The notes: a model not told the origin generated them from the letters alone. Shown: positions 27,121-30,704, counted from the stretch's first letter. The stretch is DNA of 64,000 nucleotides from Alphaproteobacteria bacterium (GCA_016699305.1 CP064970.1:389647-453646), one strand, 5' to 3'. Numbers and translations are program-made.

Positions 27121-27474
27121 TTAGTGATCTAACCCAACCATAGCCCTTGCCGTCCGGCGGACCTCAAACATTAATGAGATTACGACTCCGTTCGACTCCA
27201 ATTTAAAATGATCTTTTATAATAATAAATAATTTATTCATATAATCTTGAAACTTATCTTCAATTGCGATACGTTCTTCTTCATTGTAAATATTATTAGC
27301 AATATTTAATTCTCTACTGCTTGTTACATATATGATATCAGGGTGATTATCATATACATATTTAATAACTTGACGCATCAAGCCTTCATCAAAGAAAATA
27401 CTATGCTCATAGGGCACCTCCGGCAGCGGCGGCAATTGGGGCTTAGAAGTGGTGGATTCGGGCTGGTCGGTCAC
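27121..27474 (-). CDS. small low-GC protein, MTDQPEST-family paralog 1 (117 aa, GTG start)
   Basis: GTG start with AGGAGA RBS; first 19 aa near-identical to paralog at 30360..30704 because the 5' end lies inside a ~220-bp DNA repeat; body is AT-rich. Confidence 0.6.
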   Translation of the reverse strand: MTDQPESTTSKPQLPPLPEVPYEHSIFFDEGLMRQVIKYVYDNHPDIIYVTSSRELNIANNIYNEEERIAIEDKFQDYMNKLFIIIKDHFKLESNGVVISLMFEVRRTARAMVGLDH

Positions 27475-27637
27475 GGTGAGGTTCTCCTCTTGTAAAGTCG
27501 TTGGTGTTGAATGCGTCTGCTGTTCTCTTTTCTAAGGTTGTGCCAATTTATCACGCCGCCAAGCGGCATGTAAATTCTTTCACAATGCGACACGATGCCA
27601 CATTTGATTGGGTTACCGGCGTATTGTCGTTAACCAC
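27419..27637. repeat. junction repeat copy A (tail-encoding segment, RBS and first ~19 codons of downstream gene)
   Basis: Roughly 90-95% identical by eye to 30649..30866. Confidence 0.8.
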
Positions 27638-27760
27638 GATCAAATCGCTGTCCTGGCGTTGCAGCACCAGATCGGCCACGGTCAGACCCACCGAATAAGA
27701 GCAACCCTGGCATAGGCTTCTCCAAATTTCCTTGTTAGTTCGGCAGAAAGCAATTGATGT
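27551..27760 (-). pseudogene. fragment of an RTX beta-roll module fused to conserved tail peptide, no canonical start
   Basis: Open frame ...SYSVGLTVADLVLQRQDSDLIVVNDNTPVTQSNVASCRIVKEFTCRLAA*; ADLVL..SDLIV resembles the module motif of the big gene (ADVVLRREGSDLIV). Confidence 0.45.
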
Positions 27761-27870
27761 CTATATGCATCTGCTGGCCCGTTCTCTCTTCCGCCCAATT
27801 TAGATATAATGGATTCATTAACAACAGCTGCAACGACTCCACCAGTTAGTCTGTCATATGTTGTAGTCAC
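27682..27870 (-). CDS. hypothetical small protein (62 aa, GTG start)
   Basis: ORF with GGAGAG upstream; 3' end overlaps the RTX-fragment frame; may be non-coding. Confidence 0.3.
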   Translation of the reverse strand: MTTTYDRLTGGVVAAVVNESIISKLGGRENGPADAYRHQLLSAELTRKFGEAYARVALIRWV

Positions 27871-27891
27871 TTTTCTCTCCTGTAGTTATTT

Positions 27892-28338
27892 TCATGGGTT
27901 GGATAGGAAGCAGTAGTAGTCTGGATCACACACGCAGAACGCATGGCCATTCCCGCTGTAGTGAACTGTGTAACTGCAGCTTACCTTTCTATCATCATCT
28001 TTTGTTATACAACCAACTTTTTCTATTGTTCCAGACACTTTAATATCAAAGCTTATTGACTCAACAAGAGAATTTTTAGTTTTAAAAAGGAAGACACGCT
28101 TAGATAGGCCTTCTTTATTGCCATCAATAGCTATATTGCTGTCAGTCACCATGTTTTTGTTAATGTAACTTCTTAGTATATATACACTTTCGTTCGTATC
28201 ATTGTAAAATGACACATCATTATCTTTTGTTCTCATAAAAAAATAATAAAAAGATAGCACTATAAGGGCAACAAACACAGGTATAAGCATGCATGTGGTG
28301 AAACGAACCCCGCATAGTTTACATATGTACTTAGTCAT
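27892..28338 (-). CDS. low-GC membrane-anchored small protein (candidate immunity protein)
   Basis: AGGAGA RBS; N-terminal hydrophobic anchor CMLIPVFVALIVLSFYYFF; AT-rich; lies directly downstream of the SLT-head gene. Confidence 0.6.
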   Translation of the reverse strand: MTKYICKLCGVRFTTCMLIPVFVALIVLSFYYFFMRTKDNDVSFYNDTNESVYILRSYINKNMVTDSNIAIDGNKEGLSKRVFLFKTKNSLVESISFDIKVSGTIEKVGCITKDDDRKVSCSYTVHYSGNGHAFCVCDPDYYCFLSNP

Positions 28339-28361
28339 TCTAGCCTTCTCCTAGCCAACCA

Positions 28362-29519
28362 TTACGCTGCATGATGCCGTGTAAATTCTTTCACGCCACG
28401 ATACAATATTGTATGGTGTGCGTTGAGCGGCAGGTTGTCGTTGCTGCCCGCGATGGCATAATTGCTCGCGGTGGCGTTCAGGTTGATGCTGGCGATGCCG
28501 GTCTCTGCCAGAGTCTTTAACTCCGCTGCTTGGCTGACGCCGTCCTGGTTCAGATCGCGCCAGACTTTCAAATTGGCGAACTGAGCATCCGCCGCGCTGA
28601 TCTTGCCGTCTTTGTTCGAGTCCAACGTCGCCAGCGCCAGAAACCCATCCGCCTGACCCGTCTTATCCCCAAACAATTCCCCATGATCGTCAATCACCCC
28701 ATTCCCATTCACATCCCGCGCCAGCAACCCATCATCCGACTTCACCCACGCGCTCGCCTCGCGGAAACCATCCTTGTCAATATCCCAATACACCCCATTC
28801 GGACCCGTCAACTCAACGCCGTCTCCGTCAAGATCCAACACCAGAGGCGAACCTTGCTCGGAGGCTTGGTTGAATTTGGCCAGCAACTCCGCCTGCCAAC
28901 CGGGAAGCGCGACACACTGATTACCAAAAATGTTCATTACCTTGTTATAAAAAGGAATAATATCTTGACGAGAAAGTAGCGTTCCTGGGGTATCAACACC
29001 TTTAACAAAACTAGATCCTAGGCCATCATGATAGAATGCATAATAATATTCAGGGCCAAGGCCCTGGCGCTCACATTTATCTTTAATTTTATTAAAGAAT
29101 GATACCATTGTCTGAATGCTTATATAAGCATCAAACTGACCAGCCTGCCCAACTGGCGTACTCACAGACGTGTTTTCTTTCCAAGTGGTGTTGATAAACT
29201 GGCCGAGACCCGCCGCTGTTGTCGTCCCAGCTGCAGCATCCGGATTAAAACCAGATTCTTCTCTTATAATCGACAATATAAAAGCAACACCACTATTGCT
29301 CATGCCCTTTTCTTGACCGGTCTGAATGACCATGTCGATAACTTTCATCTGAACATCTGGATCTGCATCGCCAACCTTGCGGCTACGTCCGGCTAATCTT
29401 CCAGCTGTACGATCAATTGGATCATTGTAGTGACTTTCTTTTATAACTTGGTCAGCTCTATAGGATCCACCTTTTTTGCTATTTACATACAGCTGATATA
29501 ATTTACTATTGTTTGACAT
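28362..29519 (-). CDS. lytic-transglycosylase (SLT-like) head fused to the RTX Ca-binding segment; orphan head module
   Basis: GGAGGT RBS; N-terminal ~195 aa low-GC with SLT-like motifs (SIIREESGFNP...AAGLGQF); residues ~196-355 near-identical to residues ~283-437 of the RTX protein; ends with diverged copy of the conserved tail (...KEFTRHHAA*). Confidence 0.75.
   Translation of the reverse strand: MSNNSKLYQLYVNSKKGGSYRADQVIKESHYNDPIDRTAGRLAGRSRKVGDADPDVQMKVIDMVIQTGQEKGMSNSGVAFILSIIREESGFNPDAAAGTTTAAGLGQFINTTWKENTSVSTPVGQAGQFDAYISIQTMVSFFNKIKDKCERQGLGPEYYYAFYHDGLGSSFVKGVDTPGTLLSRQDIIPFYNKVMNIFGNQCVALPGWQAELLAKFNQASEQGSPLVLDLDGDGVELTGPNGVYWDIDKDGFREASAWVKSDDGLLARDVNGNGVIDDHGELFGDKTGQADGFLALATLDSNKDGKISAADAQFANLKVWRDLNQDGVSQAAELKTLAETGIASINLNATASNYAIAGSNDNLPLNAHHTILYRGVKEFTRHHAA
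28445..28883. repeat. ~440-bp segment near-identical to 25477..25915 of the RTX gene
   Basis: Shadow ORFs 25715..25966 and 28530..28979 encode near-identical peptides; protein segments FNQASEQGSPLVLDLDGDGVELTGPNGVYWDID... shared. Confidence 0.8.
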
Positions 29520-29564
29520 GATTATTACCTCCAGCTTGATTAGATAGGTTACATGGTTTCAATT

Positions 29565-30203
29565 TTACTGATTTTCCTTCGCATCTTTTAGACGCGCCCA
29601 CGGTATATTATCTAAAAAAATTGACATTCCATGTTTAATAGTTTCTTTATCCTGAACGAACATTTTTTCAAAAACATCCCAGAATTTATTTTTCTTACTT
29701 ATATAATCTCCAGATCGCGCAATTAATTTTCCTTTTATTGTATCAATAATAATATGCTCTTCGCAACTATCACAATTTCCGTAATTTGCTACAGAAACAA
29801 TGACATATTGTCCTTTTTTTATTGATTCAATACAAGAAAAAGCTAAAACATGCATATTCATAACATTTATACTATTCTTTTTATCTAGATCATAAAACCT
29901 AATATACTTCTTGTTTGCTAAATAATCTTCCTTATTTCCAATACTCATAGTTTGAGAGATACATGTTTTATATGATTCTTCTCTTGTACACACAGAGTAC
30001 AAGCTGACATCACTTCCATCAGAACACGTTGCCGAAACTGTATAAAGGGCAAAACCCGGATCAGCGCACACCCCTACAGACGCTGTAAAAACAGAGAAAA
30101 CGAGAATTATAAAGAAGAACACCACTGTTCCACAAAGGTTCTTGCACAATCTGATGCCAGTACACTCCGTGTTTATTCTAGAAGGTTTCGATGTTTTATT
30201 CAT
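29565..30203 (-). CDS. low-GC secreted Cys-rich protein (candidate immunity protein)
   Basis: Start set at MNKTSKPS (GGAGAC RBS); signal-peptide-like GTVVFFFIILVFSVFTASVGVCA; many Cys; AT-rich. Confidence 0.55.
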   Translation of the reverse strand: MNKTSKPSRINTECTGIRLCKNLCGTVVFFFIILVFSVFTASVGVCADPGFALYTVSATCSDGSDVSLYSVCTREESYKTCISQTMSIGNKEDYLANKKYIRFYDLDKKNSINVMNMHVLAFSCIESIKKGQYVIVSVANYGNCDSCEEHIIIDTIKGKLIARSGDYISKKNKFWDVFEKMFVQDKETIKHGMSIFLDNIPWARLKDAKENQ

Positions 30204-30248
30204 AGGGTCTCCACATCTGGCTGTTATAAGTTGACCACTCACGCTTCT

Positions 30249-30348
30249 ATCACGCCGCCAAGCGGCATGTAGGTTCTTTCACAATGCGACACGATACCGC
30301 ATTTGATTGGGTTACCGGCGTATTGTCGTTAACCATATCGTCATTTCT
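30249..30348. repeat. junction (tail) repeat copy iii
   Basis: Encodes ...DDMVNDNTPVTQSNAVSCRIVKEPTCRLAA* on minus strand, immediately upstream of gene 29565..30203. Confidence 0.75.
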
Positions 30349-30359
30349 TCCTCCACGAT

Positions 30360-30704
30360 TTATATAGACATACCAAACATAAGACGCGCACGTAATCGTG
30401 CTTCCCAGAACAGATCTGTAGTTAGAACAGAACCATCAATATTCAAATGCGATCCTATATAATAATAAGAATCTCTGGGAACAGAAGAATAATACTCGTT
30501 ATTCAACACTTCAAGGTCTGTCTCCTTCTCTCCCTTTCTTTCCCATTCGGCTATCCTCAGAAAAAGATCAGGTCGTTCGTCATAAATAGTCTTCATCACT
30601 TTATCCACCAGTTCCTGGGGGCATCTCTTAGGGTGAAACGCTTCCAACTCCGGCAGCGGCGGCAATTGGGGCTTAGGTGCAGTGGATTCGGGCTGGTCAG
30701 TCAC
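30360..30704 (-). CDS. small low-GC protein, MTDQPEST-family paralog 2 (114 aa, GTG start)
   Basis: Same 5' repeat-encoded N-terminus MTDQPESTAPKPQLPPLPE; body diverged but alignable (LVDKVMKTIYDERPDLF vs LMRQVIKYVYDNHPDII); similar C-terminus. Confidence 0.6.
   Translation of the reverse strand: MTDQPESTAPKPQLPPLPELEAFHPKRCPQELVDKVMKTIYDERPDLFLRIAEWERKGEKETDLEVLNNEYYSSVPRDSYYYIGSHLNIDGSVLTTDLFWEARLRARLMFGMSI

Follow-up and report, generated by a model that had tools for sequence, protein, structure and literature searches.

The locus and its two small genes

In a 64-kb stretch of DNA from Alphaproteobacteria bacterium (GCA_016699305.1, CP064970.1:389647-453646), the whole of which is referred to here as the window, a toxin locus is flanked on one side by an ATP synthase beta gene (19641..21092) and on the other by a capD-like gene (31268..33184). 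Every gene of the locus, and every element of it for which coordinates are given below, is on the minus strand. Two of the genes are small: P117 (27121..27474, 117 amino acids), which heads a cassette ending in a full-length RTX gene, and P114 (30360..30704, 114 amino acids), which is now an orphan. Our analysis suggests that the products of these genes are probably antitoxin-like immunity proteins for the PIN-like N-terminal domain, or head, of a type I secreted polymorphic toxin. Both belong to a family of proteins of about 100 amino acids (aa), in which P114 is a more typical member (E 6e-30 against the family HMM) and P117 a divergent one (E 1e-21) with degenerate motifs (YDNHPDII, FEVRRTARAMVG).

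An earlier note, made from the sequence of the window, had described the two open reading frames (ORFs) as real, homologous and coding for small cytoplasmic proteins, and this description holds. The proteins are 34% identical, a figure that counts in 19 repeat-encoded residues (BLASTP E = 3e-19), both begin, as had been read from the sequence, with GTG after AGGAGA, the distance being 8 nucleotides (nt), and neither has a signal peptide or a lipobox in its sequence. They have in common the N-terminus MTDQPEST(TS/AP)KPQLPPLPE, which the earlier note had correctly traced to a repeat of ~220 bp. This is a 222-nt direct repeat, 92% identical between its copies, that spans the first 19-20 codons of the genes: copy 1 (27415..27636) comprises the element R1 (see below), the 5' untranslated region with the AGGAGA, and codons 1-20 of P117, and copy 2 (30645..30866) the element R3, the 5' untranslated region and codons 1-20 of P114. 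Right after ...LPPLPE the identity falls to ~50% (~51% for the bodies of the genes), and upstream of the repeat it is ~49%. Within the window there are exactly two occurrences of a 35-nt core of the repeat, where none would be expected. The bodies of the genes are AT-rich, again as had been noted, with a GC content of 0.32 and 0.40 versus 0.63-0.65 in the repeat part.

The two genes had also been called a diversifying paralog pair, and this part of the earlier description has to be given up. The identity of P114 to homologues in other bacteria, 38-44%, exceeds its 34% identity to P117. The pair are therefore not recent in-situ duplicates and, judged from these comparisons, they look like separately acquired cassette genes rather than in-situ duplicates that later diverged. 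Because synonymous sites between P117 and P114 are saturated (pS = 0.77), dN/dS is not estimable for the pair, while in two close paralog pairs elsewhere in the family it is 0.047 and 0.18, so that selection there is purifying and diversification cannot be claimed. In a word-indexed search the sole match to P117 was the identical protein IPI58_01900 from a metagenome-assembled genome at NCBI, and the P117 body is 100% conserved in an independent Logan contig (L012).

Directly downstream of P117 is an RTX gene in which the head is interrupted. The N-terminus of the head is encoded by a 43-codon ORF (26942..27073; E 2e-11 against the head profile), which ends in an in-frame TAA (26942-26944). 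The rest of the gene (21164..26941; longest ORF from an ATG at 26788) is in the same frame with only this one TAA between the two, and carries the second half of the head, a Gly/Ala-rich hydrophobic stretch (26039-26329), the self-processing module (SPM; 25385-25879) and the RTX and HCBP_related repeats. The read-through product and the N-termini of RTX proteins from two other loci align collinearly over ~600 residues. Given this collinearity with intact heads, the gene that directly follows P117 is an RTX gene with an interruption of its head at codon 44. The independent contig has the same TAA, together with three 1-nt indels in the head. A 43-aa ORF from another locus (L006) was considered as kin of the 43-codon ORF and was found to be unrelated.

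The RTX protein has 1874 aa, and its conserved part starts at PLVLDLDGDG. Its SPM matches PDB entry 6sjw with an E of 7e-44 over 165 residues (phmmer) and is homologous to residues 415-591 of FrpC, and C-terminal to the SPM there are 15 HemolysinCabind and 6 HCBP_related matches. The gene also contains internal modules of ~600 nt (22481-23827) that are up to 94% identical (22922-23221 versus 23528-23827), which indicates a recent module duplication within the gene.

A family of small helical proteins

An exhaustive HMMER search with a two-sequence profile of P117 and P114 identified 27 cluster representatives at E <= 1e-3, and a follow-up profile search identified 35 proteins, all of them annotated as "hypothetical". 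Relatives elsewhere, the absence of which the earlier note had named as the finding that would count against it, therefore exist. Scans of genome and metagenome collections yielded few further loci, the family being rare. The length of the members is ~100 aa, or ~210-280 aa in those that contain the domain twice. The members share three conserved motifs, IPPLPELEI, DQxTVDxxLxxIYERRPDLF and the C-terminal FWEARRRARLMYGMxI, giving the family signature PPLPEL ... IYERRPDLF ... FWEARRRARLMYGM, the last part of which is the C-terminal motif found family-wide. The C-termini of P117 and P114 had been seen as converging, and their similarity is real, but it reflects this family-wide motif and is not peculiar to the pair. 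Similarly, conserved ends around a divergent centre, which had been taken as a sign of rapid evolution, are found throughout the family, the N-terminal one being PPLPEL and the C-terminal one FWEARRRARLMYGM.

In our AlphaFold2 model (pLDDT 88, pTM 0.78) P114 is all-helical and forms a compact bundle of 4-5 helices. A structural search with the model returned generic bundles only, with no informative match and no DNA-binding fold, and FrpD was absent among the PDB matches. Neither P117 and P114 nor their relatives had a match in Pfam, NCBIfam or PADLOC scans, and the Pfam and NCBIfam models for the DNA-binding signatures HTH, RHH, AbrB and PHD found none in family members. The N-terminal DNA-binding domain of VapB-type antitoxins (AbrB, RHH, PHD/YefM or HTH) was not found in P117 and P114.

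The family is coding and under purifying selection. The AT-rich bodies, the GTG starts and an annotation that goes no further than "hypothetical" might point to spurious or decaying ORFs in repeat-rich DNA. We consider this extremely improbable in view of the conservation across the family, the purifying selection in close pairs and the confident fold; in addition, the body of P117 is intact and identical in a second assembly, in which the adjoining head has indels.

Association with a single family of heads

A member of the family lies directly upstream of a head in six independent loci, the window included, and probably in a seventh. The two genes have the same orientation, with gaps from the small gene to the head of -4 to +47 nt, and every head directly downstream of a family member belongs to one and the same family. 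All of these heads have four motifs, xxFLDxxF, YD(I/L)xITDxVxxE, GE(R/K)S(I/M) and (I/V)xS(N/D)DxxF, which provide four conserved acidic positions in PIN order. The head looks PIN-like, as modelled, and is presumably a nuclease. In all relatives a Gly/Ala-rich hydrophobic stretch lies between the head and the SPM.

The loci differ in their organization. In L003 the pairing occurs twice, with the family member P0031, an orphan head fragment and the family member P0032 followed by an SPM-RTX protein of 1807 aa. In L005/L018 two adjacent members precede an RTX gene that encodes 908 aa up to the contig end, and a longer (65-kb) relative of L005 has the same gene order, with an RTX protein of 1648 aa followed by genes for a membrane fusion protein (MFP), a C39-type ATP-binding cassette (ABC) transporter and an outer membrane efflux protein (OEP). 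The L013/L014 locus has the two-domain protein P0014, then an SPM protein and then an ORF with RTX repeats. In L021 the two-domain protein P0018 is separated by a 3-nt gap from a head, which is cut by the contig end, with a hydrophobic stretch, and in L019 a family member is found beside an HlyD-type MFP gene and the head is truncated. A recombination scar (L019:1491-1781) adjoins a family member in this locus. The probable seventh case is L011, in which a stand-alone head of 196 aa (P0053) overlaps by 4 nt with a partial ORF, the C-terminus of which matches P0018 (BLASTP E 1e-4, the best of a few comparisons tried).

The head is thus on or beside a protein of a secreted type in 5 or 6 of the 6 or 7 loci, the probable seventh being stand-alone. 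These contexts are three RTX proteins of >1600 aa, the SPM protein with the RTX-repeat ORF (L013), the contig-cut head with its hydrophobic stretch (L021) and the remnant beside the MFP gene (L019). In other loci the family occurs in stand-alone form, as single, paired or fused copies, and integrases or plasmid genes are often nearby.

Both the gene order and the specificity for one type of head would also be expected of an export chaperone (holdase) or secretion adaptor that keeps the head unfolded or inactive for type I export and gives no protection against incoming toxin. Type I substrates have to remain unfolded until export (PMC7078468), and both L019 and the 65-kb relative of L005 have type I secretion genes beside the module. 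Such a role is nevertheless unlikely in our view. Stand-alone copies occur in genomes or contigs without a nearby RTX gene or head, the probable partner in L011 is a stand-alone head without an RTX body, and P117 and P114 have both been retained though neither has an intact head to chaperone.

Cassettes upstream of the RTX gene

The repeat upstream of P117 and P114 contains an element of ~98 nt, R, of which the locus has four copies, one of them degenerate. Every copy stands immediately before the gene that opens a unit: R3 (30779-30876) precedes P114, R2 (30248..30345) a gene for a 225-aa protein, the degenerate copy (approximately 28355..28442, at the 3' end of the ORF of the lytic transglycosylase (SLT) head described below) a gene for a 148-aa protein, and R1 (27549-27646) P117. 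With the exception of R2, which follows the 3' end of P114, each copy has a truncated stretch of RTX gene before it, and the reading frame of this RTX fragment continues into R, which provides its last ~30 codons (...NDNTPVTQSNVASCRIVKEFTCRLAA, followed by the stop codon). The left edge of the cassettes is remarkably precise. R contains a promoter-like sequence, TTTACA-N18-TAAATT with an upstream TG (27574..27545 and 30804..30775), identified as a consensus match only.

The origin of R from an HCBP_related module was also considered. The 5' part of R1 resembles such a module by eye; there is no Pfam match, and we regard this derivation as unproven. R is also not among the RNAs detected by Rfam at gathering thresholds, which in the whole window were only a tRNA and the SRP RNA. 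The terminal peptide of the orphan head in L003 (…NDNHIVKLAKAA) was dropped as a possible R homologue, as L003 is without a shared upstream repeat.

The most upstream unit is a relic, a 140-aa fragment of SPM and post-SPM sequence (30781..31203) that is 92% identical to 25213-25512 and runs into R3. It is followed by R3 and P114. The stop codon of P114 is followed after ~14 nt by R2, with no head remaining. The third unit consists of R2, the gene for the 225-aa protein (29565..30242), which occupies the first-gene slot and has an N-terminal hydrophobic anchor or signal, and an orphan cassette (28362..29519) with an SLT head (Pfam SLT, E 1e-6) fused to a truncated SPM (28446-28847) that is 99% identical to the main copy. 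The fourth unit has the degenerate R and, as its first gene, that for the 148-aa protein (27892..28338), with one N-terminal transmembrane segment. This is followed by a 62-aa remnant of a third type of head (GPADAYRHQLLSAELT; 27682-27870), with a faint match to DUF6973 (E 0.13), and a fragment of an RTX module that extends into R1 (27551..27870 including the remnant). The last unit is that of R1, P117, the interrupted head and the full RTX gene.

The protein in the first-gene slot therefore covaries with the type of head, the SLT cassette and the cassette with the 62-aa remnant having unrelated membrane-anchored proteins. The earlier note had proposed the RTX head and the SLT head alike as possible partners of P117 and P114, but the family accompanies one type of head only, and the SLT cassette has its own, different, membrane-anchored protein. 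The N-terminal anchors of the 225-aa and 148-aa proteins fit immunity to heads that act in the periplasm, such as the SLT head, and the 225-aa protein, which has no Pfam or NCBIfam match, is a candidate periplasmic immunity protein. The interiors of the cassettes have a GC content of 26-45%, versus 57-62% in the conserved DNA (windowed). That P117 and P114 are alike in their first 19 residues is explained by the 222-nt repeat being the 5' edge of the cassette. In the independent contig (L012, 40-75) the P117 body has a P114-type N-terminus, MTDQPESTAP... with TAP and not TTS (cf. 27440-27474 and 30670-30704 of the window), which suggests that the repeats exchange sequence by gene conversion or recombination, or are allelic. 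P117 and P114 would both effectively be orphan immunity genes here, the head of P117 being broken at codon 44 and that of P114 having been replaced by the SLT cassette, and the locus may represent a decaying toxin with retained immunity genes.

The organization of the cassettes bears on two other explanations. The conserved RRRARL helix, the position of the gene as the first after a promoter-like element and the many copies in integrase- or plasmid-rich DNA could be accounted for by a small protein that binds DNA and regulates the cassette or mobile elements, with the basic C-terminal helix on DNA, autoregulation, and an adjacency to the head that reflects operon organization only. We give this only a slim chance. 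The HTH, RHH and AbrB signatures were not found with Pfam or NCBIfam, and the structural matches were generic bundles without a DNA-binding fold. Moreover, the same slot is elsewhere occupied by membrane proteins, which cannot be DNA-binding regulators, and the pairing with one type of head across otherwise unrelated promoters and contexts would be unexpected.

The second is that the pair is the remnant of an ordinary chromosomal vapBC-like toxin-antitoxin module, with an unstable antitoxin and no role in secretion or competition, which became fused by chance to an RTX gene. This would be in line with the antitoxin-first order with short overlaps, with a PIN-like head and with the probable stand-alone pair in L011. 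It appears quite unlikely, however, given that the head is so frequently on or beside a secreted-type protein and is followed by a conserved hydrophobic stretch and SPM. The heads are also swapped as cassettes with a peptidoglycan-degrading SLT head, which is able to act only outside the cytoplasm.

The window also contains dnaA (11548..13110), a tRNA gene (11277-11348) and the SRP RNA gene (46042-46137). The toxin locus is therefore in the core chromosome and near dnaA, so that it is probably near the replication origin. On the plus strand, a 1168-aa ORF (1453-4959) has a weak, sub-threshold match to apolipoprotein-like proteins (long helical repeat).

A putative immunity function

The coupling of the family to one type of head, probably including a stand-alone head, the different first genes with different heads, and the orphan and stand-alone copies lead us to favour the interpretation that P117 and P114 are antitoxin-like immunity proteins. 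A role as immunity or effector-partner protein had already been put forward in the earlier note and is the best supported of the functions that we weighed. The orphan and stand-alone copies on DNA rich in mobile elements, the AT-rich cassettes, and an intact P117 beside a decaying head in two assemblies are all part of a pattern like that of immunity genes.

We propose that P117 and P114 represent a helical family of ~100 aa whose cognate target would be the PIN-like N-terminal head of FrpC-type RTX proteins. In these proteins the head is followed by the Gly/Ala-rich hydrophobic stretch, the SPM, the RTX repeats and a C-terminal type I secretion signal. The putative immunity gene comes first, with the gene for the head within 0-47 nt or overlapping, as in vapBC modules. 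In the producer cell the small protein might bind the head and silence it until export, and it might also guard against heads that kin deliver. Occlusion of an acidic active site of the PIN type could be the role of the basic C-terminal helix (RRRARL). The R element with its promoter-like site, the first gene and the head together behave as an exchangeable cassette placed before the conserved SPM-RTX body.

Several observations weigh against an immunity function. About half of the distinct loci have no nearby head, and co-divergence of heads and partners was not significant (Spearman 0.55, p 0.26, n = 6; mirror-tree style test, 4 loci). In the structural search the fold was unlike known antitoxins or immunity proteins. 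Tandem pairs or fused two-domain forms are very common in the family (for example, L001:9586-10423, L005:8416-9065, L008:9683-10381 and L010:537-1166), and a high frequency of such forms is untypical of immunity proteins. When the proteins are aligned to a two-domain profile, the first domain is matched by P117, P114 and the first copy in L005 and the second by most single-domain members, a hint of a functional unit resembling a heterodimer. Conservation of the termini is strong throughout the family, and a basic helix would be just as compatible with DNA binding or with a conserved partner.

The assignment of the head to PIN is also weak. The PIN-like identity rests on the motif pattern and on an AlphaFold2 model with a pLDDT of 44, made from a shallow alignment; the heads had no match in Pfam (PIN models included), NCBIfam or PADLOC, or in a profile search of PDB sequences, and a comparison of the head with Shigella VapC by hhalign was negative. 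Secretion of the RTX protein of the window raises further difficulties. Type I secretion genes (ABC, MFP, OEP) were not found within the window, and both copies of the SPM have Ser-Pro at the scissile site (25880-25882 and 28848-28850; ...EQGS-PLVLDLDGDG), in place of the Asp-Pro that is found in L003, L005 and L013. As the published cleavage mechanism of FrpC requires the Asp side chain (PMC7078468), self-cleavage of the SPM in the window may be lost or altered.

We also put forward a wider model, to which we give somewhat less than an even chance. FrpC-type SPM-RTX proteins could constitute a type I polymorphic-toxin platform of inverted polarity, the heads of which (PIN-like, lytic transglycosylase and at least one more) would be swapped as cassettes of promoter repeat, immunity gene and head by recombination at the upstream repeat and the SPM, with displaced cassettes piling up upstream. 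P117 and P114 would then be the founding members of a new immunity fold, in which a basic C-terminal helix plugs an acidic active site.

Comparison with known systems

To our knowledge, there is no agreed biological role for FrpC-like clip-and-link RTX proteins, a class that includes ApxIVA, although their chemistry is solved. The closest described arrangement to the one seen here is that of FrpD and FrpC in Neisseria meningitidis, in which an SPM-containing type I secreted RTX protein has a variable N-terminal domain and a small upstream gene in the same operon encodes a product, FrpD, that is specific for that domain and binds the N-terminal part of the protein (PMC6759196; PMC5472700). A role of FrpC as an antibacterial effector, with FrpD as its immunity protein, has been proposed (Bayer-Santos et al., PMC6759196), so far by analogy only. 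The differences are that FrpD is a surface lipoprotein rich in beta-sheet, whereas P117 and P114 are all-helical and have no similarity to FrpD in sequence or fold, that the head in the window belongs to a different, PIN-like, family, and that the scissile residue is Ser here and Asp in FrpC. The locus and its relatives provide comparative evidence for the effector-immunity interpretation, namely exchangeable heads, among them a cell-wall enzyme and a PIN-nuclease-like head, with a small gene of its own before each type of head.

The arrangement also resembles VapB-VapC modules, in that the small protein comes first and is followed directly, with a short gap or an overlap, by a PIN-like protein, and by analogy neutralization by direct binding is likely. 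In contrast to VapB, the modelled fold is a compact bundle of 4-5 helices, and P117 and P114 have no AbrB, RHH, PHD or HTH domain. In contrast to VapC, the PIN-like domain mostly forms the head of a giant secreted RTX protein, and it has no Pfam PIN match.

Should the family be confirmed as immunity proteins, it would represent a new immunity fold, the logic of polymorphic toxins would extend to type I secretion with N-terminal toxins, and each head with its partner of 100 aa would provide a cheap pair for toxicity-rescue work. Should the platform of inverted polarity prove true, the long-enigmatic FrpC class would gain a function. For annotation, a set of "hypothetical" proteins acquires a name and a context rule. 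Our literature search found no account of cassette-exchanged N-terminal heads on SPM-RTX proteins, and the 2012 survey of polymorphic toxins mentions RTX proteins only as classical host-directed toxins (PMC3482391).

The resemblance to polymorphic toxins such as CdiA-CT/CdiI, Rhs, MafB and TpsA/TpsC lies in variable toxin domains on a conserved scaffold with adjacent small immunity genes, in truncated orphan cassettes that keep a conserved piece as a homology arm, and in AT-rich and apparently horizontally acquired DNA (PMC3482391; PMC5472700). Compared with those systems the polarity is inverted here: the toxin is at the N-terminus, since the C-terminus carries the type I secretion signal, the immunity gene comes before the toxin, and orphans accumulate upstream. 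The promoter-bearing repeat would serve as the 5' homology arm and the SPM as the 3' arm.

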